Made by a program: the position numbers and the translations under genes. This document shows positions 7,256 to 30,289 of a stretch of 64,000 nucleotides of DNA, piece by piece. This DNA is from an uncultured bacterium (GTDB lineage: Bacteria > Acidobacteriota > Thermoanaerobaculia > Multivoradales > JAHZIX01), in the NCBI GenBank assembly GCA_965368975.1, contig CBDUPA010000002.1, positions 320,001 through 384,000 of the forward strand. The letters are read 5' to 3'. Within the stretch, counting starts at the first letter, position 1. Each line of letters opens with the position of its first letter. The notes under the pieces were generated by a model. That model searched no databases and was not told the DNA's origin. It saw nothing but the letters and a program-made list of their open reading frames with translations.

Positions 7256-8542
7256 ATGCAAAGATTCACCTTCAGCGTCGCCGGCCTGATCGTTCTGCTG
7301 CTGGCCAGCGGCGGCTGCGACCTCGATACCAGCGCCGCAACCAAGGCGCGCCCGAAGAGCGTCGAGGAGACTCTCCGCGACCTCGAGCAGCGCGAACAGC
7401 GCGTGCGCGATCGCGAAGTCGAACTGGCCGAGCAGAGCGAAGTCCTGGACTCCCGCGAAGCCAACCTACAAGCCCGCGAGCAGGGCGTCGTCGGCACCGA
7501 GAGCGACGTCGACGAACGCGCGCAGCAGCTGACGGCCCAAGTCGAGACCCTGGAGAGTCAGCTAGCGGCTCTGCAGCAACGAGAGAACGAGCTGGCGCGG
7601 GAACTGGAAGAAGCCGACGCACGCGCCCGTGAGCTGCAAACGCGCCAGGCGAGGCTCGACGAAGTCGATCAGTTGCTGCGCCAGCGCGAGAGCCGGCTCA
7701 CCGAGCGCGAAGACAAGGCCGCGCAGCGCGCCAGACAGCTCGACACCAGCGCAACGCAGCTGCGCCAACGCGAGCAGCGGGTGCACCAAGACGAAGCACA
7801 GCTACAGCAACGTCAGGCCACCCTGGACACGCAAGCTGCCCAGGTCCAGGACGAACGCCGACAGCTGGAGCGCGACGCGGCAGAGCTGGAGGCACAGCGT
7901 CAACGGCTGGCGCGCAGCGGGACCCTACCGCCCTATCAAGACCGCAACGAGCCGACCATTCCGCGGCGCACCGACGATCCGCGACGGCAGACACCTCCAC
8001 CGGTCAGTGGCGAGGCTCGTCCGATTGACGTTCGCCTACCCGCGGGGACGGAGTTGCAGGTCGAGTTTCTCGCATCCCTGAGCAGTGCCAGACAGCGCAG
8101 CGGCCAGACGTTTCGTACCCGGGTGTTCGAAGACCTCTATATCGACAACCGCCTGGCCATACCCGCCGGCTCCGAAGTCCTCGGCCTGGTGCATGGTGTG
8201 ACCGCTCTGCGCGATCGCGACGGCCGAGCGTGCCTCGAACTGCGCTTCACCCACCTGGTCCCCCGTGGCGGCACCTCCATCCCGATCCACGCCGAGTGGG
8301 TGGAAACGAGCAGCGACCGCAGCGGCCGCGACGCTGCCACCATCGGAGCCGCGACCCTGGGCGGCGCCTTGCTCGGCCGCATCCTTGATCGCGGCGGTGA
8401 CGGCGGCACCATCGTCGGCGCCATCCTGGGGGCCGCCACCGGCGCGGTGATCACCGGCAACCGCGGTGAAGAAGCCACCATCGACCAGGGCACCGTCATC
8501 CGGATGCGGCTGGAAGAGTCGGTCCGGGTGTCCAGCCGCTAG
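7256..8542 (+). CDS. Putative lipoprotein with long coiled coil and C-terminal beta domain plus glycine zipper
   Basis: GGAG RBS; signal ...LLLASGGC; ~200 aa Q/E/R-rich heptads; C-terminal LPAGTELQV...IPAGSEVLG and GAATLGGALLG...GAILGAATG. Confidence 0.65.
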   Translation: MQRFTFSVAGLIVLLLASGGCDLDTSAATKARPKSVEETLRDLEQREQRVRDREVELAEQSEVLDSREANLQAREQGVVGTESDVDERAQQLTAQVETLESQLAALQQRENELARELEEADARARELQTRQARLDEVDQLLRQRESRLTEREDKAAQRARQLDTSATQLRQREQRVHQDEAQLQQRQATLDTQAAQVQDERRQLERDAAELEAQRQRLARSGTLPPYQDRNEPTIPRRTDDPRRQTPPPVSGEARPIDVRLPAGTELQVEFLASLSSARQRSGQTFRTRVFEDLYIDNRLAIPAGSEVLGLVHGVTALRDRDGRACLELRFTHLVPRGGTSIPIHAEWVETSSDRSGRDAATIGAATLGGALLGRILDRGGDGGTIVGAILGAATGAVITGNRGEEATIDQGTVIRMRLEESVRVSSR

Positions 8543-15475: not shown

Positions 15476-17499
15476 ATTGGTAGATCCTTACACGTTTCTA
15501 AGCGGTCGCCCGCTCGGGTAGATGTCAAGACCCCCTTTCAAACCGTGCTTGCGGATTTCCCGCACACGGCTTACGGATGGCCTCTCGGGTCGCGGCATTA
15601 CGCAGCCTCCGGGTAGCGGATCGTGCCCATGAGCTTGTAGAGCCCGAGGTTCCAGAAGGACTCACTCGTCCAGCGGCGCGCCTCGCCCAGCTTCAGGTGC
15701 CGCCCTTTGCGCGTAAGGCGCAAGCGGCGCAGTCGTCGCCAGACGTAGGTGTCGACTTGAACGAATTGCTTGGCGGCGTTTCCCGTGCGGAAGTACTGAC
15801 TCCACCCTCGAAGCACGGGGTTGAGACTCGCGATGACATCGCGCAGATCCGCGTGGCATCGTGACCTCGGAGTCAGCTCTTTGATGCGCTGCCGTATACG
15901 CTGCATCGAGCGCTGCGACGGCCAACGGTGGAGAAAGTAGAGCCGACGCCCCGTCTTCTCCCACAATCGACCGCTCAAACGCTTGTGCAGGTGGCAGCCG
16001 AGGAAGTCGAACCCCTCCTTGCCGTCGTAGAGATTCACTCGCCTCGTCTTCTCCGGGTGTAGCTCCAGACCAAGACGTTCCAGGATCACGCGGATCCGCG
16101 CCTCGGCCTGATCGCACTGGGACTTCGTGCGACAGATCACGACGAAGTCGTCTGCGTACCGCACCAGCGTCCCCAAGGGAGCGCTGTGGCGCGTCCACAG
16201 CGTGTCCAGCACATGCAGGTAGATGTTCGACAGCAAGGGTGAAATCACACCACCCTGCGGTGTACCGACCCGCGTCGGCGACACCTTGCCGTCCTCCATC
16301 ACACCAGCTTCGAGCCACTGCCGCAGCAGCTTCAGCATCCGCCGATCCGAGACGCGCCGTGCCACCAGAAGCAACAGCTTCCGGTGGTCGATGCTCCCGA
16401 AGTAGTCCCGGATGTCGGCATCGAGCACGTGATGATGCCCCTTGGCGCCGAGCTTCCTCAGCGTCTCCAGCGCATCCGTCGCACTCCGCTTTGGCCGGAA
16501 ACCATACGAGACGGGCAAGAAATCCGCCTCGAAGATCGCCTCCAACACCAGCTTTGCCGCCATCTGGACCACACGGTCTCGTACCGTCGGGATACCCAGC
16601 GGCCGCTTCCTTCCATCTGCCTTCGGGATGTACCGGCGCAGCACCACCTCAGGCCGATACTTCTTGGCTCGCAGCGAGGAACCGAGCTCTTCCAGGAAGC
16701 GCTCGGTACCGTACTGCTCCACGTCGCCTAGCGTCGCGGCATCGACGCCCGCGGCTCCGCGGTTGGCTCGTACCCGCTTCCACGCCTCCCACAGGATGTC
16801 ATCCCTGTGGATGTGGTTGTACAGGGCGTGGAAACGCCTACCCGGCGACCGCTTGGCCGCCGCCCACAGTCGACGTTGGAGGTGGCGCACTTTCACGCTC
16901 GGCCTACGGCCGACGGGGTCGATAGGTCCGGTCTTGCCGGCCATTCCCTTGCACGTGCCTCCACCCTCGACATGACCAAACCAGGGACCCTTCCCTAAGG
17001 CGGCGTTCTTCTGCACCGCCTTCACCGGTACTACGATCCCCTCGGACTCCCGCTGCGCACGACCCGACTTCGCCTTCGGCCTATACGGGCACGCTGGCCG
17101 CGACAACGGCTGCACAGACGGGTCTCTCGTGTTCCGCGCGTCTCCTTGCACACGTGCTGCGCCCCATACCCCGCCGGCATCCGACGCAGGCTCCGGATCT
17201 GACCCCACGCCGGACATGGCCTTCGCCGTGACATGAGCGGCTCGGCTACCGAATTGTAAATCTGTCGAGGCTGCAGGCTTCACTTCATGTTGCGGCCCGT
17301 GTGCTTGCTCCCCGTCCAGCGGAAATTCTCCGCCTCCGGGCTTGTGACGCCCCGCTCGGGCAAAGGGGTCTCCCCCAAATACCTGGGGCCGGCTACTCGG
17401 CGCTCCGGCGCTTACCGAGGTGGGACTTTCACCCACTGGACACGCGCAGCGCACAGATCTCTCCCCGGAAACCAGAGTTCGATCTGTTTCACGACGCAC
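15476..17499 (-). mobile_element. Group II intron, apparently complete (~2.0 kb)
   Basis: 5' GTGCG at 17499; domain V AAGCCGTGTGCGGGAAATCCGCAAGCACGGTTT (AGC triad, GAAA loop) just after the RT stop; domain VI ending ...CTACCAAT at 15476; RT ORF inside. Confidence 0.88.
15598..16944 (-). CDS. ltrA: Group II intron reverse transcriptase/maturase without C-terminal endonuclease
   Basis: NRGAAGVD, RPLGIPTVRDR, SYGFRP, GTPQGGVISPLLSNIYL, RYADDFV, FDFLG, LRGWSQYF (X domain); ends YPEAA*; internal ATG 16944, frame is open up to 17502. Confidence 0.93.
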   Translation of the reverse strand: MAGKTGPIDPVGRRPSVKVRHLQRRLWAAAKRSPGRRFHALYNHIHRDDILWEAWKRVRANRGAAGVDAATLGDVEQYGTERFLEELGSSLRAKKYRPEVVLRRYIPKADGRKRPLGIPTVRDRVVQMAAKLVLEAIFEADFLPVSYGFRPKRSATDALETLRKLGAKGHHHVLDADIRDYFGSIDHRKLLLLVARRVSDRRMLKLLRQWLEAGVMEDGKVSPTRVGTPQGGVISPLLSNIYLHVLDTLWTRHSAPLGTLVRYADDFVVICRTKSQCDQAEARIRVILERLGLELHPEKTRRVNLYDGKEGFDFLGCHLHKRLSGRLWEKTGRRLYFLHRWPSQRSMQRIRQRIKELTPRSRCHADLRDVIASLNPVLRGWSQYFRTGNAAKQFVQVDTYVWRRLRRLRLTRKGRHLKLGEARRWTSESFWNLGLYKLMGTIRYPEAA

Positions 17500-17600
17500 C
17501 ATGGCCTCATTCTAGGTCCGACAACGCGTACTAGTATTGAGCCAGAAGATTCGCTAGCAAGAACATTCCCAGCGAGCCTCAGACTGATTGGGCCAATAGG

Positions 17601-19235: not shown

Positions 19236-19464
19236 TCGACCCGAGAACGAGGCACAAAACGACCCTTAGCTCCTTGGGAGCTTGAGGGTCGTTTCCCGTT
19301 TTGGGGTCCCAACCGTCTCGGCTCACTTCAAGAACTTCGGCCACAACCCCTGGTGTAGGATGCCCGCAATGAGAGGCATCGATCCCGGCCCTCTCGAGCG
19401 GCAACCGAACTCTCGACCTCTCCGCTCCAACGCCCACCGACAACCAGACGCAAGGGAGGCACGC

Positions 19465-22400
19465 ATGACGCGTAGCACGTGGACCCTCGGACTCGTTCTC
19501 ATCCTGCTCGCCGCCCTCACGGCGGTACCGGCCGTCGCCTCGAAGACGCAACCGGCACCCGGCACCTCCGCCGGCCTCGACGCCGATCTGCTCGCCGGCA
19601 TGACGGCACGCGCCATTGGCCCGGCGGCGATGAGCGGTCGTATCGGCTCGATCGACGCGCTGGCGAATGACCCGAACGTGATCTACGTGGGCGCCGCCAC
19701 CGGCGGCTTGTGGCGCACGCGCAACGGCGGCGTCACCTGGGAGCCGATCTTCGACGATCAGCCGGTAGCAGCGATCGGAGCAGTGACGCTGGAGCAGGCG
19801 AATCCGGACGTGGTGTGGGTGGGCACCGGCGAGGGCAACACGCGCAACAGCGTGTCCGTGGGCAACGGCGTCTACAAGTCGCTCGACGGCGGCGACACCT
19901 GGACGCACCAAGGCCTCGACCAGACCGAGCGCATCCACCGCATCCGCCTGCATCCCGACAACGCGGACATCGCCTATGTGTGCGCCCTCGGCCAGCTGTG
20001 GGGCGAGAACGAGCAACGCGGCGTGTTCAAGACCACCAACGGCGGCACGACGTGGGCCAAGATCCTGTACGTCGACGAGCGCACCGGCTGCTCCGACCTG
20101 GAAGTGGACCCAGTGAACGGTGACAAGGTGATCGTGGGCATGTGGCAGCACCGCCGCTGGCCGTGGTCCTTCAAGTCAGGTGGCCCGGGCTCCGGGCTCT
20201 ACGTAACCCATGACGGCGGCGCGACCTGGACGCAGCGCACGCAGGACGACGGCCTACCGGAAGGGCACCTCGGCCGTATCGGCCTGGCGATTTCTCACTC
20301 GCAGCCGAACGTGGTCTACGCCATCGTCGAGGCCGAGAAGTCGGCTCTGCTGCGTTCCGACGACGGCGGCAAGACGTTCCGCGCCGTCAACACGAACAAC
20401 AACGTCATCTCGCGGCCCTTCTACTACGCCGACATCCGCGTCGACCCGAAGAACCCGAACCGTGTGTACAACCTGTGGTCGCTGCTTTCGGCCTCGGACG
20501 ATGGCGGCCGCACCTTCGACATCATCGGCTCCTGGAACACGATCCATCCCGACCACCACGAGCTGTGGATCCATCCGCACAACCCGCGCTTGCTGATCAA
20601 CGGCAACGACGGCGGCGTCACGATCTCGCAGGACCACGGCCGCACCTGGCGCTTCATCGGCAACCTGCCCTTGGCGCAGTTCTACCACGTGCGAGCTGAC
20701 AACCAGATCCCTTACAACGTCTACGGCGGCCTGCAGGACAACGGCTCCTGGGTCGGCCCCAACGAGGTGTGGGAGAACGGCGGCATCCGCAACCACCACT
20801 GGCAGGAAGTCAATTTCGGCGATGGCTTCGACACCGTGCCGGACCCGCAGATCCCCAACCAGGGCTACGCCATGGCGCAGACAGGCTACCTCGTGCGCTG
20901 GAACCTGGACACCGGCGAACAAAAAGAAATCCGACCAGCACCGCCGGCGGAGGACGAGAAGCTGCTGCGCTTCAATTGGAATGCCGGCATCGAATTCGAC
21001 CCGCACGACCCGACCGGCGCCACCGTCTACTACGGCAGCCAGTACATCCACAAGTCGACTGACCGCGGAGACACCTGGACGATCATCAGCCCGGACCTGA
21101 CCACCAACAACCCAGAGTGGCAGAAGCAGGCGGAGAGCGGCGGCCTGACGCTGGACGTGACCGGTGCCGAGAACTTCACCTCGATTCTGGCGATCGACCC
21201 CAGCCCGGTGCAGGAAGGCGTGATCTGGGCAGCCACCGACGACGGCCGCCTGCACGTGACGCAGGACGGCGGCGAGACCTGGACCAGCGTCGAGGGCAAC
21301 CTGCCGGGCGTACCGGCCAACACCTGGATCCCGCACGTCAACGCGTCGCCGCACGCCGCCGGCACCGCTTTCGTGGTGCTCGACGACCATCGGCGCTCCA
21401 ACTGGACCCCCTACGTGCTGCGCACCGACGACTTTGGCCAGACCTGGACGTCGCTGGTGAGCGACAACCTGTGGGGCTATGCCCTGGTGATCGAGCAGGA
21501 CCCGGTGGACCCGAACCTGCTGTTCCTGGGCACGGAGTTCGGCCTCTGGATCTCGACCGACGCCGGTAGCGGCTGGCTGCGCTTCGAGCACGGCGTGCCG
21601 ACGGTCAGCGTGATGGACCTGGCGATCCAGGAGACCGAGCACGACCTGGTGATCGGCACCCACGGTCGTGGCTTGTTCGTGCTGGACGACATCCGCCCCC
21701 TGCGCGGACTGGCCGCCGAGCACCAGGCGGGAGAGCTCCGCTTGTTCGAGATCCCCACCGCCTACCAGCACGAAGTCGCCCAGACTGGCTCCTCGCGCTT
21801 CCCGGGCAACATCGAGTTCCGCGGTGAGAACCCCCGCTACGGCGCGCTGCTCACCTTCTCCCTTCACGGCGACGACCTACCGCACCCGGACGAGGCGAAG
21901 GAACGCGAGCGCAAGGCCGCCGAACGCGCTGCCAAGCTGACCGAAGTCGAAGCCGGCGAGAGCACCGAACAAGAACCGGCACGGCGTCGCGGACGGCGCG
22001 CTGGCGCAGGTGGTCCAGGCCCAGGCGGCCCCCCGTGGGCGCGCGGCGACGACGGACCGCAGATCGACATCGAGGTCGCGGACGCCAGTGGTGAGGTCAT
22101 CCGCAGGTTCAAGGCACCCGCCCGCCAGGGTCTCAACCGGACCACCTGGAACCTGGCACGCGACGGCTTCCGTCGGCCAGCGGGGGACTTGCCCTTCTGG
22201 ATCACGGGAGCACCCACGGGACCGGCCGTACCGCCGGGCACCTACACGGTGACCGTGAAGTTCCGCGACCAGGAATCGAGCCAGACGGTCGAGGTGAAAG
22301 CCGATCCGCGCATCGATCCGCCCCAATCGCAAGCGACCTGGGAAGCCCACTACCAGGGCCTGCTCGACGTCGGGGCCCTACAGGAGGTCCTCACCGACGC

Positions 22401-22965
22401 TGTAGAGCGTATCGACGCGACCAAGACGAGCGTCGACAGCCTGCTGGCCCGCGCCGGTACCCTCAACAAGGAAGCTCTCGAGGCAGAAGAGGAGGAAGGC
22501 GGCGAGATAGAAGACGCTGCTTCCGAGACAGCTGACTCAGACACGGGCGACACCGAAGGCGAAGCGGGCAACACCAGCGGCACCGAGGTCGCGGCGACCG
22601 AAGAAGACGAGGCAGCCCGCGGTCCATACGGGGAACTGCTCAAGGCCGGCCGTGAGCTGAACGAGCAGCTCGACGGACTGCGCGAACGCCTGGTCGGTCC
22701 CGAAGAGAGCAAGGGCATCCAGGAGGACACCGACGCGCAAAGCTACCTGGGCGGTGTCCGCGGCTCGATGAGTTCCTCGTGGGATCCGCCGACGGCGGCA
22801 CAGCTGGCCTACCTGGAGCGCGTGCGCCAGCAACTGGCGGCAATCCTGGAAGACCTCAACCGCGTCCACGCCGAGGACGTCGCCGCCTTCCGGACCCAGG
22901 TGCGCGAGTCGCAACTCGACTGGCTGCCCGAGCAAGAACCTCTGACGCTGCCCGAGTCGGAGTAG
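19465..22965 (+). CDS. Secreted VPS10/sortilin-like BNR (Asp-box) repeat protein, glycosyl hydrolase-like
   Basis: Signal peptide; RAIGPAAMSGRI; many S/TxDGGxTW Asp-boxes; YGGLQDNGSW; LFLGTEFGL. Confidence 0.88.
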   Translation: MTRSTWTLGLVLILLAALTAVPAVASKTQPAPGTSAGLDADLLAGMTARAIGPAAMSGRIGSIDALANDPNVIYVGAATGGLWRTRNGGVTWEPIFDDQPVAAIGAVTLEQANPDVVWVGTGEGNTRNSVSVGNGVYKSLDGGDTWTHQGLDQTERIHRIRLHPDNADIAYVCALGQLWGENEQRGVFKTTNGGTTWAKILYVDERTGCSDLEVDPVNGDKVIVGMWQHRRWPWSFKSGGPGSGLYVTHDGGATWTQRTQDDGLPEGHLGRIGLAISHSQPNVVYAIVEAEKSALLRSDDGGKTFRAVNTNNNVISRPFYYADIRVDPKNPNRVYNLWSLLSASDDGGRTFDIIGSWNTIHPDHHELWIHPHNPRLLINGNDGGVTISQDHGRTWRFIGNLPLAQFYHVRADNQIPYNVYGGLQDNGSWVGPNEVWENGGIRNHHWQEVNFGDGFDTVPDPQIPNQGYAMAQTGYLVRWNLDTGEQKEIRPAPPAEDEKLLRFNWNAGIEFDPHDPTGATVYYGSQYIHKSTDRGDTWTIISPDLTTNNPEWQKQAESGGLTLDVTGAENFTSILAIDPSPVQEGVIWAATDDGRLHVTQDGGETWTSVEGNLPGVPANTWIPHVNASPHAAGTAFVVLDDHRRSNWTPYVLRTDDFGQTWTSLVSDNLWGYALVIEQDPVDPNLLFLGTEFGLWISTDAGSGWLRFEHGVPTVSVMDLAIQETEHDLVIGTHGRGLFVLDDIRPLRGLAAEHQAGELRLFEIPTAYQHEVAQTGSSRFPGNIEFRGENPRYGALLTFSLHGDDLPHPDEAKERERKAAERAAKLTEVEAGESTEQEPARRRGRRAGAGGPGPGGPPWARGDDGPQIDIEVADASGEVIRRFKAPARQGLNRTTWNLARDGFRRPAGDLPFWITGAPTGPAVPPGTYTVTVKFRDQESSQTVEVKADPRIDPPQSQATWEAHYQGLLDVGALQEVLTDAVERIDATKTSVDSLLARAGTLNKEALEAEEEEGGEIEDAASETADSDTGDTEGEAGNTSGTEVAATEEDEAARGPYGELLKAGRELNEQLDGLRERLVGPEESKGIQEDTDAQSYLGGVRGSMSSSWDPPTAAQLAYLERVRQQLAAILEDLNRVHAEDVAAFRTQVRESQLDWLPEQEPLTLPESE

Positions 22966-23749: not shown

Positions 23750-25999
23750 ATGGATCCACCCTCTCCCTCCGTCTTCATCAGCTATAGTCACGACACCGAC
23801 GAGCACAAACAGCGTGTCCTGGCGCTGGCGGATCGGCTGCGCCAGGACGGGATCGACGCGATTCTCGATCGCTACGCGGGGTCCCCGGAGGAAGGCTGGC
23901 CGAGATGGATGTTCGGACAGATCAAGGCTGCCGACTTCGTGCTCGTCGTCTGTACCGAGACGTATTACCAGCGCTTCTGGGGCCTGGCGCTGGACGGGCT
24001 CGGTGTGAACTGGGAAGGCGCCATTCTCACTCACTCCCTCTACGCCGCCCGTAGCTGGAATCCGCGCTTCGTGCCTGTCCTCTTCGACACCGAAGACAAG
24101 TCACACATCCCCGAGATCTTCAGCGTCTCCTACTTCTCAGTCTCCACAGAAGCAGGGTATCTCGACCTCTACCGCCACCTGACAGGTCAACCCGAGACAC
24201 CGCCCCCGCCCATTGGCCCACCACGAGAACTCCCGCCGTCCGACCGCCCTGACCCCCTCTTCGAGAGCGACGAAACCCGCGGCTTCTCCAAAGAGCTACA
24301 GTCCGCGCGACAGGAAAGGAAAGCCCTGTCACTCCGAGGCGAGGACATCACTACCGTCCAGGAACGCATCCTCGACCTGAGACGCAAGCTGCGCGCCGGA
24401 CCACAGCTGCAAGCCGGGGACCTGTTGCTCGACCGCTTCGAGCTGGTGGAGGAGATCGGTCACGGCGGCTTTGCGGTGGTGTGGAAAGCCTGGGACGAGG
24501 AGGACGAGGTAGTTGTCGCGGTCAAGGTGCTGCACGGCCAGTACTGCAAAGACCGCACTCGCCGCCAGCGCTTCTTCAACGGCGCCAGGCGCATGGCGAA
24601 GTTGCACCATCCGCACGTCGTCAAAGTGCTGCACCAGAAGCAGGTCGACGATGGTCATTACTTTTTCGTGATGGAGTACCTGCCCGGTGGTGACTTCCGG
24701 CAAGCCGTCTGCAGCGGTGCTCTCTCGCAAGATGAACGCCTACAGGTCGTGCGTCAGATCGGAGATGCACTGGAATACGCCCATGAAAGACAGGTAATCC
24801 ACCGCGACGTCAAACCCCACAACATCCTGCTGGACACAGATGGCACCCCCAAGCTGACCGATTTCGACCTGGTGCGCGCGCTCGAGTCAACGCAGGGGAC
24901 CAAGACCGGCTTCTTGGGTACACCGCTGTACGCGGCACCGGAGATGATGGAACGCCCACAGGACGCAGGGCCCGCGGCGGATGTCTATGGATTGGGGATG
25001 ACGGCGCTGTTTGCCCTGGCGGAGCGGGAACTGCCGCTGTCCCTGATGCGGGGAGTCGATGCCTTCCTGGCAGACTTGCAAGCACCAGAGCCCATCAAGA
25101 AGGCAGTCCATCGGGCGGTAGCATGGAACGTCCAAGAGCGGTTCAGCTCAGTAGCGGAGTTCTGCAGCGCGTTGGAGCTGCCCCGCAAGCCGACCCGGGT
25201 GGAGCCGCAAGCTGCACGATCAACGCGACCGCGACTAGCCTGCGGGAGTACGGGAGAGATTCTGCCACCGACCCAGGTCCGCGAGCGCCAATACGGAGAA
25301 TTGGGCATCGAGCTGGTGCACGTACCGGCCGGTGTGTATCCGATGGGTGCCAAGGGCATCAAGTACGCCGAACCAGTTCACCAAGTACAACTCAGCGAGT
25401 TCTGGATCGGCAAGTACCCCGTGACCCGCGAGCAGTACGCCGCGTTTCTGAAGGCCCATCCAGATCATGCGAAGCCACTCTTGTGGACCGAGGAGGGCTT
25501 TCAGCAGCCACGTCAACCCGTGGTCGGCGTGAACTGGCACGATGCCAAAGCCTTCTGTGGGTGGATCGGCGCACAGCTCCCCACCGAGGCGCAGTGGGAA
25601 GCCGCGGCGCGCGGCCCAGAGGGTCGGCCGTATCCATGGGGTCCTGCTGAGCCGACGAAGCAACTCGCCTGCTTCGGGCAAGACTGGGAGACGGGAAGTC
25701 CGGAAGCGGTCGATGCGCTACCCGAGGGTCAGGGGCCGTTTGGCACCTGGGCTCAGGCGGGCCACGTCTGGGAATGGTGCGAGGACGGCTGGGATGAGAA
25801 TGCCTACGCCGAGCGCGCGAAACGCATTCTGGAAGATCCCGCCCATGCCGCCGACAAATCTGCGTATCGTGTGCTGCGCGGCGGGTCTTGGGCCCACCAG
25901 GCCAGGAACCTGCGGGCCGCGTCCCGGAACAGGCTCAGGGCCGACTATCGGTACCGGAGCATCGGGTTCCGTGTCTGTGTGTCGTCCTCCGAGCCTTGA
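23750..25999 (+). CDS. SEFIR/TIR-like domain + Hanks-type Ser/Thr kinase + FGE-sulfatase (CLec-fold) protein; putative DGR target
   Basis: VFISYSHD...GWPRWM...ADFVLVVCTETY; IGHGGFAVVWKA, VAVK, HRDVKPHN, DFDL, APE; LPTEAQWEAAARG...VWEW...RVLRGGSW...GFRVC. Confidence 0.88.
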   Translation: MDPPSPSVFISYSHDTDEHKQRVLALADRLRQDGIDAILDRYAGSPEEGWPRWMFGQIKAADFVLVVCTETYYQRFWGLALDGLGVNWEGAILTHSLYAARSWNPRFVPVLFDTEDKSHIPEIFSVSYFSVSTEAGYLDLYRHLTGQPETPPPPIGPPRELPPSDRPDPLFESDETRGFSKELQSARQERKALSLRGEDITTVQERILDLRRKLRAGPQLQAGDLLLDRFELVEEIGHGGFAVVWKAWDEEDEVVVAVKVLHGQYCKDRTRRQRFFNGARRMAKLHHPHVVKVLHQKQVDDGHYFFVMEYLPGGDFRQAVCSGALSQDERLQVVRQIGDALEYAHERQVIHRDVKPHNILLDTDGTPKLTDFDLVRALESTQGTKTGFLGTPLYAAPEMMERPQDAGPAADVYGLGMTALFALAERELPLSLMRGVDAFLADLQAPEPIKKAVHRAVAWNVQERFSSVAEFCSALELPRKPTRVEPQAARSTRPRLACGSTGEILPPTQVRERQYGELGIELVHVPAGVYPMGAKGIKYAEPVHQVQLSEFWIGKYPVTREQYAAFLKAHPDHAKPLLWTEEGFQQPRQPVVGVNWHDAKAFCGWIGAQLPTEAQWEAAARGPEGRPYPWGPAEPTKQLACFGQDWETGSPEAVDALPEGQGPFGTWAQAGHVWEWCEDGWDENAYAERAKRILEDPAHAADKSAYRVLRGGSWAHQARNLRAASRNRLRADYRYRSIGFRVCVSSSEP
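25868..25999 (+). repeat. DGR variable-region-like repeat VR1 (pairs with 26663-26794)
   Basis: 118/132 nt identical to VR2; all mismatches at codon positions 1-2. Confidence 0.85.
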
Positions 26000-26042
26000 T
26001 TCTTGGCCCTTGGGCCTTGTTCCCCTTCCGGTTTCCCCCTCC

Positions 26043-26067
26043 GTGTTGACAGTGACACTGTCAACAC
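26043..26067. other. Perfect hairpin/cruciform downstream of VR1
   Basis: gtgttgacagt-gac-actgtcaacac (11-bp stem, 3-nt loop). Confidence 0.75.
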
Positions 26068-26094
26068 TCCGGCAGCATTGACAATGTCAACACG

Positions 26095-26340
26095 TCAACA
26101 ACCGAAGCCCAGAACTCCGCGCCACGAAGCCAGCGAACGCTCCAGCGTGGTCAGATCACCGCGAGCGAGCAGAGCCAGGCGCTTGCGGAACCGCTGGGTA
26201 GCCTTCTTGCCAACCTCGATTCCCTGTCGCGAGATTCGGTAGCCCAGGTACGGCTGGGTACCGATGGAGCTGCGGATGTGCCCCTTGCGAACATTCAAGG
26301 CCAGGCGGCGCTGCTGCCACAGCCAGGCCCGGACCTCGCC
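26095..26340 (-). pseudogene. C-terminal remnant of a DGR-type reverse transcriptase
   Basis: EVRAWLWQQRRLALNVRKGHI...QPYLGYRIS...RFRKRL...LERSLASWRGVL*: resembles RT6/RT7 and thumb; no start codon and no YxDD upstream. Confidence 0.68.
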
Positions 26341-26537
26341 ACCGCCAAACGCGTGGCGCGCTCCTGCCGGGCCTGCGCGGCACAAATGCGCGCCTCGTTC
26401 AAGGGCAGGTCTTCGCGCTTCAGACTCCAGCGTCCATCGACCTTCCGCGCCGGAAGGTCGCCCTGGCGTATGCGGTACCGGAGCTGAAGCTCCGACTTCC
26501 CAAGCAACCGTGCGGCTTCCGACAAGGACAATTCCAT
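26341..26537 (-). pseudogene. Truncated excisionase-like helix-turn-helix protein (N-terminal ~65 aa)
   Basis: MELSLSEAARLLGKSELQLRYRIRQGDLPARKVDGRWSL; then reads out of frame into the RT remnant and stops at 26295. Confidence 0.68.
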
Positions 26538-26662
26538 GTCGACATTGGTAACAAAATTTCCCCGTGCACGTCAAGAACCACGATGCTACAAACCGAACCC
26601 AGCAGAATCTTAGCTTAGGAAGAAATTCTAGGCATTCCGGAACAAGGCTCAAATACCAAGTC

Positions 26663-26794
26663 TCAAAGCTCGGAGGACGACACACAGACACGGAACCCGA
26701 AGTACCGGTTCCGATCGTCGGCCCCGTACCTGTTCCGGTACGCGGCCCGCAGGTGCCAGGCCTGGGAGGCCCAAGACCCGCCGCGCAGCACACG
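26663..26794 (-). repeat. DGR variable-region-like repeat VR2
   Basis: Reverse complement aligns without gaps to 25868-25999. Confidence 0.85.
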
Positions 26795-29700
26795 AACCGC
26801 AGGATCTCGACTGGTGGAGAGCGGATCTGTTGACAAAGTGTCAACACGTTTCTGGTACGCCTTCTCGTCCCAGGCATCCGCACACCACTCCCAGACGTTG
26901 CCGGCTTGGTCCAGGGTACCGAAGGGCCCAGCCCCCTGGGGATAGGCATCCACCGGCGTGGTCTTACCCACGTGGGCGTTCCAGTCGTCATCGGCAAAAT
27001 TTGCAACTTCAGGTGTTGGCTCGCCCTCACCCCACGGGTATTTTCGACCCTCTGGCCCACGCGCGGCCGCTTCCCACCGCGCCTCGCTCGGGAGTTCCAG
27101 CCCCGCCCACGCGCAGTAGGCCTGTGCCTCGTTCCAGCTCACGCCCACCACCGGTTGATCCGGCTGGTTGAACTGCTTGTCGTCCCAGATTTCCGGCTTC
27201 GGCTGGTCCGGCTTTGCCTCCAGGAACTCCTGGAACTGCGCATTGGTCACCGGGTACTTGCCGATCCAGTAGGGGCTGAGCCGCACTGCGTGGAAAGGCT
27301 TCTCGTCGTCGGTAATGTCATCAGCTCCCATCGGATACTCCCCACCGGGAACGAAGACCAGCACCGAACCGTCCTTCTCATGCACCCGCTCCTGCCCGGC
27401 CCTCGCCTCTTCCCCGCTACGCGCAGGTTCGGCGACCGGCCCCCCTGCAGGATGCGCCTCCTTGCCCAGCAGCTCCGCCGCCAGCCGCCGGACCGCCGCA
27501 GTCGCTTCCGCGTTCTCGGCCAGCCGGCCGACAATCTCGACACCGGATTCCTCGCCCACCCGAGCCTCTCGCCAGCCGCGCAATCCCCGCAGCGGGCGCA
27601 GCGCGTGGTAGCACTCGTCCGAGCTGTCCAGCCCGCGCTGCAGCGCTTCCAGGAACGGTAGCGGCGTGCTGACGTGTGCATCACGCAGGCAGTCATCGAC
27701 CAGAGAAGCGTCCTGCGCCAGCACGCCGGCACGCAAGCAGGCGTCCATCAGCGGCCGGAAGAGGGACGGCGTGCTCAGGCCCAGCGCTAGCAGGATCACC
27801 TCGCGCCACCACTTCTCCCCGAAGTGCTCGGCCAGTTCGTCCAGCCCGCCCGGTTCCCCCACGCGGTTCTGGAAATACAGAGCGCACAGATACTCCTGGA
27901 AGCTCAAGTGCAAGAAACCGTAGTTGCCCTCGCCCACTGCCACCAGAACGCCGCTCTGTTGCCGAATCTCCTCCAGCAAGCTGAGACCTTCTTCGGGATC
28001 GCGGCCCAGTTCGCGCAGAGGCTCGCGCAGCTGCTCGGCCAACTCGACGCCCGGGGCTTCCCGCTCTTCTGCGCGGTGCAGATAGTAAGCCAGCGGCTGC
28101 AGCAGGGTCATGGCTTCCTTGGCCGACAGGTCGATCCGTAGCCCCTTGGCGCCGCGCCAGGTTTCCAGCAGCACCATTACGCACTCTTCGTACAGGTCGA
28201 CGCGACGGCCCGGCAGGCTGCGACGGTCACGGTGGACGAGGCACAGGTTCTGCAGCATCAGCGGATTGGTGGCGAGCTTCCGCAAGCTCTCGGTGCGCGG
28301 ATCGTCGCCTTCGAAGATGTCGGCGCACAGGCGGTCGGCCTTGGCGTCGGCAGCGGCTTCCAGCTCGGCTTCGCCGTCCGTGGTGTCCACATCACCCAGC
28401 GTCGCCACCGCCTCGCCGACTCCTTCCAGGCGCTCGACCACCCGGTACCAATCGCGAATGAAACGCCGCGCCTCTTGCGGCTTCAAGTCCTGGACGTGCA
28501 GCTCCAGGAAGCGACCGCCCAGGCGGGCATCGCCTTGGTAGCCGGCGTAGCGACTGGTGACGACGAAGCGGCTGCGCGGGTACTGGTCCAGAGCCTTGTC
28601 CAGCCAGGCTGAAACGGCGGCACGCTCGCTCGGGTCGGCGACTTCGTCGAGGCCGTCGAGCAGCACCAGCAGGCCGCCCCGGTCACGCAGGTACTGCGCG
28701 AGCTTGCGGCAGCGCTCGGGACTCTCGGGGCCGTCGAGTTGGAAGCCCAGCGCCGCTTCGAGTGCGGCCGCGAAGCCGGCGGTGGGATCGGGCAGACGGC
28801 GCAGCTCGATCAGCACGGGGATGGTTTCCGCCGGCAAGCCGAGCGCCACCGGACCGGCCGGTTCGGTGGCCAGCTGGACGAAGTGCTTGAGCAGGGTCGT
28901 TTTGCCGCTGCCTGGATCGCCGAGCACAACGACGCCCGGTAGCTGGTAGCGCTGGGCGAGTTGCAGGGCTTGGTCGAAGGGAAGATCCCGGCGCTCGTCC
29001 TGTTGTTCCTGCGCCAACTTCCGCAGATCCCTGCGGCTGCGCACCTCACCGTGTTCTGCCTCGAACATGCTGTGCCGCACGTTGGCGCGCAGCGGCACGT
29101 AGACCTTCTCCAGCTCCAGCCCGACGCGCAGCTTGGTGACGAAGCCGGCCAGGCGCAGGTAGGCGTGCTCGGCGCGCAGGCGTTCCAGGTAGCGGGGCAG
29201 GGTTGGCGGGGCTTGTGCGGGAGGCGTCTTCGGCGCGGATGTCACCGGCTGAGCTTCGACTTCCTGAGAGCTGCTGGTTTCCAACTCCTTCAACCAGTTC
29301 AGCTGCAGCGGCCAGACGCCGTCTTCCGCATGCTTGGCCACCGGCCGCCGTACCCAGCCGCCACCGTCCGCATCAAAGCGACGCAGCCAGACCTCTCCTT
29401 GCCCTGCCATCGGCTTCAGACAGACCAGGCTGTAGCCGTTCTCGATCTTGGAGCCCTGATAGCACGCTGCCGCCGAAAAGACGACGTAGTTCCCGCCTTC
29501 CAGCGGCTCGACCCACTTTTTGTGCTCGTGGCCATGAAGCAAAAAACGAAAATCTTGTCGCAAGCCACGGCTGAAGTCGTTCTCTTCCGCCTCGACTAGC
29601 CAGTTCGGTGGATGATGTGCCAGCGCGATGCGGACATCGGCGGAGCGCAGCTCGGGGGCGAGCTTCTGCTGCTGCCAATCGCCCGCCATCCACAGCTGGC

Positions 29701-30289
29701 CCTTTTCGCCGTTGCGATGGCAGGACCAAGCGGAATTGAAACCACCGATGCCGACGCGCAAGCCGTCGAAATCGCGAATCGCCGTGTAGATCAGGTGCTG
29801 GGCGTGGTCAGCTGGCAGCAGGTGTTGATAACCGTGGCGGTTCAGCGCGTCGCGGTATGGCTTCAGCCGGACGGTGACCTGCTGCCAGTCGATACCGGCT
29901 TGCTGGACCATCTCGACGACGTCGGACAGCTCCTTCAATCCCGCTTGCCAGGTCTTGACCATGGTCGAGACCTGAGTGCGGTCGACGTCGTGGTTGCCCG
30001 GCACCAGGAAGACATTGGTCTTCAGCAGGGATGGCTCGAAGGCGGTCCGCACCGCCTCCAGGAACTTGAAGGCCACATCGAACTGGTCACGCAGGTTACG
30101 CCCCTCTTCCGGCCCCAGTTGCCCAAAGGCGAGATCCCCGGTGAAGAAGATCAGGTCCGGGCGCAATCCCTCGTCACGTTGTAAGCGTTGCAGGTCGTCG
30201 ACCAGCTTGCGCGTCACGCGTTCGGCATCCCAACCGTGCTTGGGATTGCAGGCGTGCAGATCAGAAAGGTGTAGCCAAGTCAGAAACAA
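26663..30289 (-). CDS. NLR-like protein: calcineurin-like metallophosphoesterase + NACHT NTPase + FGE-sulfatase (CLec-fold); putative DGR target
   Basis: LHLSDLH, TGDL, PGNHD, HHPP, LHGHEH; GDPGSGKTT, LLDGLDEV, VTSR, NPLML, FLHLSFQEY; GNVWEW...RVLRGGSW...GFRVC. Confidence 0.9.
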   Translation of the reverse strand: MFLTWLHLSDLHACNPKHGWDAERVTRKLVDDLQRLQRDEGLRPDLIFFTGDLAFGQLGPEEGRNLRDQFDVAFKFLEAVRTAFEPSLLKTNVFLVPGNHDVDRTQVSTMVKTWQAGLKELSDVVEMVQQAGIDWQQVTVRLKPYRDALNRHGYQHLLPADHAQHLIYTAIRDFDGLRVGIGGFNSAWSCHRNGEKGQLWMAGDWQQQKLAPELRSADVRIALAHHPPNWLVEAEENDFSRGLRQDFRFLLHGHEHKKWVEPLEGGNYVVFSAAACYQGSKIENGYSLVCLKPMAGQGEVWLRRFDADGGGWVRRPVAKHAEDGVWPLQLNWLKELETSSSQEVEAQPVTSAPKTPPAQAPPTLPRYLERLRAEHAYLRLAGFVTKLRVGLELEKVYVPLRANVRHSMFEAEHGEVRSRRDLRKLAQEQQDERRDLPFDQALQLAQRYQLPGVVVLGDPGSGKTTLLKHFVQLATEPAGPVALGLPAETIPVLIELRRLPDPTAGFAAALEAALGFQLDGPESPERCRKLAQYLRDRGGLLVLLDGLDEVADPSERAAVSAWLDKALDQYPRSRFVVTSRYAGYQGDARLGGRFLELHVQDLKPQEARRFIRDWYRVVERLEGVGEAVATLGDVDTTDGEAELEAAADAKADRLCADIFEGDDPRTESLRKLATNPLMLQNLCLVHRDRRSLPGRRVDLYEECVMVLLETWRGAKGLRIDLSAKEAMTLLQPLAYYLHRAEEREAPGVELAEQLREPLRELGRDPEEGLSLLEEIRQQSGVLVAVGEGNYGFLHLSFQEYLCALYFQNRVGEPGGLDELAEHFGEKWWREVILLALGLSTPSLFRPLMDACLRAGVLAQDASLVDDCLRDAHVSTPLPFLEALQRGLDSSDECYHALRPLRGLRGWREARVGEESGVEIVGRLAENAEATAAVRRLAAELLGKEAHPAGGPVAEPARSGEEARAGQERVHEKDGSVLVFVPGGEYPMGADDITDDEKPFHAVRLSPYWIGKYPVTNAQFQEFLEAKPDQPKPEIWDDKQFNQPDQPVVGVSWNEAQAYCAWAGLELPSEARWEAAARGPEGRKYPWGEGEPTPEVANFADDDWNAHVGKTTPVDAYPQGAGPFGTLDQAGNVWEWCADAWDEKAYQKRVDTLSTDPLSTSRDPAVRVLRGGSWASQAWHLRAAYRNRYGADDRNRYFGFRVCVSSSEL

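Follow-up and report, generated by a model that had tools for sequence, protein, structure and literature searches.

Why should two genes that face each other end in almost the same 132 nucleotides, when their nucleotide identity collapses just upstream? The question is raised by a stretch of 64,000 nucleotides from an uncultured bacterium of the Acidobacteriota (positions 320,001 to 384,000 of contig CBDUPA010000002.1, assembly GCA_965368975.1; this whole stretch is called here the window), in which a gene for a SEFIR/TIR, kinase and FGE-sulfatase protein converges on a gene for a phosphoesterase, NACHT and FGE-sulfatase protein. An earlier note on this DNA had proposed that the two gene ends are variable regions (VRs) of a diversity-generating retroelement (DGR), both rewritten from one template repeat (TR), and that the proteins they terminate are hypervariable sensors. 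The analysis presented here upholds the first part of this proposal and not the second. We consider, with a probability of roughly 0.85, that the locus is a decayed DGR with frozen VRs, each sensor being fixed at one binding-site sequence in this assembly. The VRs are regarded as frozen because no template was found and no enzyme is available locally.

Sister variable regions at the ends of two convergent genes

Target gene 1 (23750-25999, plus strand) has an open frame of 749 aa, in which Pfam recognizes SEFIR (also TIR_2) at residues 7-126, the Ser/Thr kinase domain Pkinase at 230-468 and FGE-sulfatase, a domain of C-type-lectin fold, at 521-742. Target gene 2 (26663-30289, minus strand), whose frame is open as well, encodes 1208 aa with Metallophos (calcineurin-like phosphoesterase) at 6-257, NACHT at 453-615 and FGE-sulfatase at 977-1201. 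It is collinear over residues 3-1205 with the targets of intact cassettes described below, at 48-53% identity, and its N-terminus scores 110.8 bits against the NCBIfam model 'DS8 anti-phage protein', far under the cut-off of 790. By Pfam, then, the earlier note had named the domains of both genes correctly. Its description of the genes as 'immune-like' and 'wired to different outputs' agrees with this domain content, from which it is wholly drawn, and we would likewise attribute to both targets a putative sensing or immune role.

The 64 kb contain, according to a repeat finder, one inverted repeat only, between 25860-26023 on the plus strand (VR1 arm) and 26639-26802 on the minus strand (VR2 arm), which is 164 nt long and 87% complementary and has its arms 615 nt apart. 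Probes of 22 and 31 nt taken from it gave two exact matches each and none elsewhere at up to 3 mismatches, the expectation from shuffled sequences being 0. Compared base by base, the arms differ at 22 positions, of which two lie just upstream of 25868, 14 in 25868-25999 and six after the stop codons. Over 25868-25999 they share 118 of 132 bases, and the 14 mismatches fall at codon position 1 (nine cases) or 2 (five cases) and never at position 3, with A in one copy at ten of them; the counts on which the earlier proposal was built are confirmed at every base. If the three positions were equally likely to change, 14 changes would spare position 3 with a chance of (2/3)^14 = 0.003. Nucleotide identity of the two genes collapses upstream of 25860, while their FGE domains are still 57% identical as protein over 242 aa.

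In VR1 the sites that differ from VR2 are located at 25895-25995, with a mutagenised block at 25895-25961. Gene 1 stops at 25997-25999, and a 3' boundary of VR type, together with a flank resembling an initiation of mutagenic homing (IMH) sequence, extends from about 25990 to 26023 on the plus strand. The coding part of VR2 covers 26666-26802 on the minus strand, followed by the stop (26663-26665) and by an IMH-like flank at 26639-26662. Past the stop codons, 18 of 24 bases are identical between the two copies.

Core remnants and intact homologous cassettes

The 663-nt spacer between the two genes holds two remnants of a DGR core, both on the minus strand and in different frames. One is the C-terminal part of a DGR-type reverse transcriptase (RT), its last ~80 codons (26095-26342, stop at 26095-26097), equivalent to residues 260-334 of the 334-aa RT of a related locus, L042. 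In tblastn it is 58.7% identical to the L042 RT and 36% identical to two RTs of this genome, on contigs C15 and C9, reaching their last residue; a protein database search found 64% identity to an intact 331-aa RT, P0003, and identity to intact RTs of cassettes carrying TR/VR pairs and Avd is 56-64% overall. The other remnant is an 80-codon open reading frame (ORF; 26295-26537) with an intact HTH_17 (excisionase-like) domain (Pfam E 1.6e-6). It is 57.7% identical to residues 6-76 of the 198-aa HTH protein of L042 and has a homologue in the DGR of contig C15. Its codons 1-65 are native and its tail is RT sequence read out of frame; the deletion junction lies at 26341/26342, where HTH codon 65 is joined to RT residue ~255-260.

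From the HTH start to the RT stop, coordinates give ~2.2-2.3 kb in intact cores and 443 nt in the window. Because of this difference, and judging from sequence comparison with the intact relatives, ~1.8 kb is gone, comprising the remaining part of the HTH gene together with Avd, the TR and RT residues 1-259. A search for Avd within 25990-26680 found no match. What is left keeps the order and orientation of the intact cassettes.

These cassettes came from a search with the RT remnant across 300 genomes belonging to the same order; it gave matches at 20 places, spread over 16 genomes of which the window's own is one. Among the closest loci, L042, L043 and L044 possess full cores arranged as HTH_17 gene, Avd, TR and RT. 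An FGE-domain target converges on the RT in 3/3 of them, and a second target is found upstream of the HTH gene in 2/3. In intact relatives HTH_17 is recognized with an E value of 5e-13, Avd by Pfam bAvd with 44.6 bits (cut-off 40) and the RT as RVT_1; with the NCBIfam model of DGR Avd, the same Avd obtain 45.8 bits, under its cut-off of 80. Their RTs carry an IGNLTSQ-type (IGxxxSQ) signature, which we take to be a mark of DGR RTs, this sequence not having been found in one paper searched for it.

The TRs of L042, L043 and L044 differ from their own VRs in the manner of DGRs, and they allow the adenine rule to be applied to the window. As variable sites we counted the 14 differences between VR1 and VR2 and six more that come from comparing this VR1 with the VR1 of a close relative in sludge metagenomes, discussed below. 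Of these 20 sites, 19 face A in at least two of the three relatives' TRs, as against 6 of 109 invariant sites (Fisher p = 1.3e-16). The 3' boundary points the same way: it reads CGAGC in 5/5 VRs and CGAAC in 3/3 TRs of these three loci, and both window copies have CGAGC. Moreover, the flank of VR1 after the stop is nearly the same as that of the L042 VR, and the homology boundary of the window repeats coincides with the TR/VR boundary of the intact cassettes. The similarity past the stops, put down earlier to an IMH-like sequence, thus matches the VR-specific flank of intact relatives and not their TRs, a cognate TR that would prove it being absent here.

That both gene ends are genuine sister VRs diversified from one template family, as had been supposed, is well supported by these sequence comparisons, because they enclose an RT remnant and a DGR accessory gene, because their variable sites coincide with adenines of homologous TRs, because their 3' flank is of the VR type, and because VR1 of the sludge relative differs from VR1 of the window only at sites of this kind.

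The orientation of the core relative to the targets is not the same everywhere. In the window the RT has the direction of the NACHT gene and points towards the kinase gene, and in L042, L045, L019 and L020 it points towards the NACHT-type gene. Recombination between the inverted VRs could flip the core relative to its targets.

A probably decayed cassette and the alternatives

A template was looked for in the whole genome. A third copy of the repeat is absent from the window (probes and repeat finder) and from the assembly (BLAST, E up to 10), which is 99.3% complete and consists of 59 contigs. RVT_1 has five hits in the genome, two long near-identical copies and three DGR-type RTs on contigs C16, C15 and C9. 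Templating in trans by these three DGRs was considered and rejected, since their repeats do not match the window VRs. The DGR of C16 (G000:C16:88891-97202), with its TR at 92586-92716 and two VRs, is different from those of C15 and C9. The C15 locus (G000:C15:2002-11523) has TR and RT intact and two convergent targets, and the C9 locus (G000:C9:135376-144560) is a ~82%-identical copy of it without the TR and the start of the RT. In its layout the C15 cassette resembles the window: a 1160-aa target with a VR, an HTH_17-like ORF (7427-7636), TR and RT face the VR of a 1243-aa target. It is a more distant paralogue of the window core (RT C-terminus 36%, HTH 42% identical) and, unlike the window, keeps TR and RT intact, the TR differing from one VR at 11/159 positions.

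Two parts of the earlier proposal are affected by these results. The idea that the sensors are hypervariable now is not supported, given that Avd, TR and RT residues 1-259 are deleted, that no third repeat copy exists in the assembly and that the other templates of the genome mismatch. The TR predicted to be found in the genome is likewise missing from the assembly, while homologous TRs do occur in related cassettes and have adenines at nearly all of the variable sites. Neither of the outcomes that the earlier note had named as speaking against its proposal, a lack of TR-like sequences in this and related genomes and changes spread evenly over codon positions, was observed.

According to the scheme that we propose, the ancestral cassette would have occupied the minus strand in the order gene 2 with VR2, HTH_17 gene, Avd, TR and RT, facing VR1 of gene 1. 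The RT would have copied TR RNA with errors at adenines, and the resulting complementary DNA (cDNA) would have replaced both VRs, consequently leaving them identical save at codon positions 1 and 2. A later deletion of ~1.8 kb would then have joined HTH codon 65 to RT residue ~255-260 and taken away most of the RT, the whole of Avd and the TR, and the remainder of the HTH gene. We infer both this order of events and the recency of the loss.

Information on timing comes from a ~95%-identical relative present as consensus sequence in sludge contigs, which derive from three runs of one study and none of which is from the window's own strain. The search of sequencing runs brought up five runs from two studies, which contained only a share of 0.06-0.10 of the query words, with no matching run recorded as RNA; run X5, of the second study, gave short diverged pieces only. 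Over 25400-25991 the relative differs from the window at 40/592 bases. Fifteen of these 40 differences fall in VR1; codon position 3 is affected in none, and the window has A at 11. Among the flank differences listed, by contrast, 11/22 are at codon position 3. VR1 has 0 ordinary substitutions, against the ~5 that the flank rate of ~5% predicts, which suggests that re-templating continued in both lineages after their split and that mutagenesis went on until recently. An exact scan of metagenome contigs with a 27-nt invariant piece of the VR gave 0 matches.

In the sludge contigs 555 extra nt are present at precisely 26341/26342. At one of its 30-nt ends this insert appears to extend the HTH protein and at the other the RT, as far as such short stretches can tell. 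The deletion of the relative is smaller, and may be either independent of that of the window or nested within it. A protein database search with the RT remnant, aimed at the longer ORF of the relative, returned only P0003 and the window's own 96-aa call.

Loss of the core is not peculiar to the window. Eighteen of the 19 matched places outside it were examined, one at a contig end being left out, and the TR was checked in three of the full cores only. Eight of the 18 loci have full HTH, Avd and RT, one has a frameshifted RT, one an internal HTH-Avd deletion and eight a truncated or broken RT; as the search query was the RT C-terminus, this share of truncated RTs is biased and says nothing on a preferential retention of that end. 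A scan of genome contigs with gene 2 found one locus, a truncated relative in a Thermoanaerobaculia metagenome-assembled genome with no RT within 4 kb. At the decayed locus L019 (G010:C35), a transposase-like ORF and repeated hairpin elements stand in place of the core (7300-7790 and 7860-8100); the hairpin repeats also extend the 3' end of a target gene, and the ORF, judged by eye, is IS200/RAYT-like.

Several points weigh against a decayed and frozen cassette. The cognate TR of the window has not been seen, and the adenine rule was tested only via homologous TRs that are ~70% identical to the VRs. In an assembly of 59 contigs a second core with a matching TR could sit in a gap, and the population could also include cells whose core is intact, a situation reported for another organism (Doré et al. 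2024, PMC10907252). The absence of ordinary substitutions in VR1 agrees with a recent loss, but no better than with a working template that has gone unseen. The sludge relative is also without most of the core and, if the deletion is ancestral, its VR1 differences need another source; its consensus contigs show nothing on variation within the population, and changes in VR2 are not among the rows listed. One alternative is a system that is still active, with a matching TR and an intact RT and Avd that escaped assembly, belong to an extrachromosomal element or are confined to cells without the deletion, and that keep rewriting both VRs. The number of contigs and the VR1 of the ~95%-identical relative, where changes of the mutagenesis type only imply recent templating, speak in favour of such a system, and there is a precedent in Thiohalocapsa PB-PSB1, where intact and degraded variants coexist and action in trans is described (PMC10907252). 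We nevertheless hold it to be unlikely: even at E values up to 10, no third repeat copy turned up in an assembly that is 99.3% complete, all five RVT_1 hits are accounted for, the DGR-type RTs among them having repeats of their own that mismatch, and the local core is deleted in the consensus.

The two remaining explanations do away with either the retroelement or its loss. It could be argued, on general considerations only, that recent gene conversion or duplication of a 3' segment yielded inverted repeats in facing paralogues, without any retroelement, and that the 14 differences are substitutions under selection on a binding site, which could favour non-synonymous changes. We give very little credit to this view, which leaves unexplained why it is precisely between the copies that a DGR RT remnant and an accessory gene linked to DGRs are found, why 19/20 variable sites face adenines of homologous TRs, why the homology of the repeats ends at the TR/VR boundary of intact cassettes, and why the relative changes likewise at further adenine-type sites. 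Hardly any weight, finally, attaches to the view that the deletion is an assembly artefact and that a complete core really is present between the genes. Short-read assemblies do often mis-join near repeats such as VR and TR, and the sludge contigs themselves break at 25970-26023; the junction at 26341/26342, though, is situated outside the repeat, in unique sequence between HTH gene and RT, the independent contigs of the relative from three runs have a related but different deletion at this place, and comparable truncations affect 8/18 related loci in other genomes. We therefore retain the decayed DGR with frozen VRs as the explanation of this locus.

Some other features of the window and of its genome can be mentioned here. 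Further FGE C-termini, 48-60% identical to that of gene 2, are encoded at G000:C37:6969-7754, G000:C49:8645-10372 and G000:C1:74350-75126, one of them in a kinase-FGE paralogue; these may once have been targets of a DGR. A 637-codon open frame with a strong RVT_1 match (15598-17511, minus strand), of which contig C45 holds a near-identical second copy, is probably a mobile RT of the group-II-intron type. At 19282-22965 on the plus strand, a gene for a 1227-aa Sortilin/BNR (Asp-box) repeat protein contains the window's only direct-repeat family (four 56-nt copies).

The HTH_17 gene, its flanking motifs and comparison with known systems

The HTH_17 gene is accompanied by short palindromic motifs. 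Three TGTTGACA motifs form an array at 26044-26092, right after the stop of the RT remnant and 45 nt past the stop of gene 1; the array contains a near-perfect palindrome of ~25 nt. A TGTCGACA palindrome at 26537-26544 overlaps the start codon of the HTH gene, and an inverted pair of TGTTGACA motifs is found within gene 2 at 26828-26846, ~25 nt upstream of VR2. Taken in its general form, the 8-nt palindrome TGTYGACA has nine matches in the window, seven of them within 26044-26846, where 3.0 are expected over the whole window; its genome-wide density is 0.036 per kb.

A similar arrangement is displayed by the relatives. Two to three TGTYGACA copies follow the RT stop within 70 nt in five of the seven closest loci, with arrays at 6995-7013 in L042, 7589-7607 in L045, 8439-8486 in L019 and 7303-7350 in L020, and the window, L043 and L044 each have a single copy before the HTH gene. 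In cassettes that are more distant, the core is bracketed on either side by repeats of some other short motif, such as one of the GCCGGCA type on C15. The two flanks of a core share on average 12.6 7-mers within a locus and 4.8 between loci, a difference that is only suggestive, given the confounding effect of VR ends included in short spacers and of kinship among the loci. The gene itself precedes the core in 9/12 further loci; examples of HTH_17 genes are found at 4722-5315 in L042, at G000:C15:7427-7636 and in L048, L049, L051, L054, L055 and L057. As to DNA folding, the region downstream of VR1 shows a modest signal (z = -2.8) and that downstream of VR2 none (z = 0.17), while in intact relatives the convergent VR is followed by strong GC hairpins. 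In view of the value downstream of VR2, a conserved hairpin after both VRs is not claimed.

From this distribution we put forward, as a tentative idea that may well prove wrong, that the HTH_17 protein adds a fifth kind to the DGR accessory factors. Its binding sites would be the short, locus-specific palindrome arrays (TGTYGACA in the window) that flank the core, downstream of each VR, and its part would be either to label or bend the ends of the targets so that cDNA can integrate there, or to control the cassette. If this were true, the persistence of the HTH domain and its sites after the loss of the core would mean that the regulator still acts on two frozen sensor genes. In the literature searched, no description of HTH_17 as a DGR accessory gene was found, the supplements, which possibly list such genes, being outside the search. 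Four accessory classes, avd, HRDC, MSL and CH1, are distinguished by Wu et al. 2018 (PMC5758913), and HTH_17 is not among them. Doré et al. 2024 (PMC10907252) mention an HTH gene next to one DGR. How these cassettes are controlled or aimed can be tested starting from the conserved HTH_17 gene and the motif arrays around the core.

Compared with known systems, the window is a relic of a kind already described, DGR-diversified lectin-fold sensors of STAND, kinase or TIR type and degenerate DGR loci having both been published. It displays VRs at the 3' end of genes, in the FGE-sulfatase fold, with 14/14 differences between copies and 15/15 between strains at codon positions 1 and 2; full RT (only residues 260-334 of 334 are left), cognate TR and Avd are missing from it. 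With the DGR of Bordetella phage BPP-1 (mtd-avd-TR-brt; PMC5758913) it has in common a VR at the 3' end of a lectin-fold target, adenine-specific mutagenesis, an IMH-like 3' boundary, which in the intact relatives is distinct from its counterpart in the TR, following the IMH/IMH* logic set out by Wu et al., and, again in the intact relatives, an Avd accessory. In contrast to the phage element, it is chromosomal, its targets are cytoplasmic proteins of signalling type and not a tail fibre, two convergent targets flank the core and the core is deleted. Two targets occur in 13% of DGRs in Wu et al. (PMC5758913).

The closest parallel is provided by the DGRs of Doré et al. 2024 (PMC10907252), whose targets have a lectin-fold VR at the C-terminus and further carry NACHT or nSTAND, TIR, Pkinase and PF00149 domains. 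There, two targets per locus are common, variable positions lie almost only at codon positions 1 and 2, and 'degenerate' loci without RT, TR or accessory genes are reported, some of them with intact structural variants in the population. The window agrees in its two targets, each with one C-terminal lectin-fold VR, in the variation at codon positions 1 and 2 and in being degenerate. It differs in that its loss is a clean internal deletion and not a transposon or an array like miniature inverted-repeat transposable elements, in that its core has the additional HTH_17 gene, and in its host, which is acidobacterium-like to judge by the Thermoanaerobaculia relative. Gene 2 (Metallophos-NACHT-FGE) has the domain layout of the STAND sensors of clade-5D type and shares with bacterial NACHT and antiviral STAND (NLR-like) defence proteins the tripartite layout of effector, STAND NTPase and C-terminal sensor, whereas gene 1 has a kinase in place of STAND. 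The locus adds one more well-documented case to a published picture, in which lectin-fold tips, rewritable by a DGR, are placed on NLR-like, kinase and TIR signalling proteins, and in which such elements often decay, leaving sensors with a single fixed specificity. Here the decay can be followed at the level of single bases, since junction and remnants are preserved and both intact homologues and a relative with another deletion are available for comparison.

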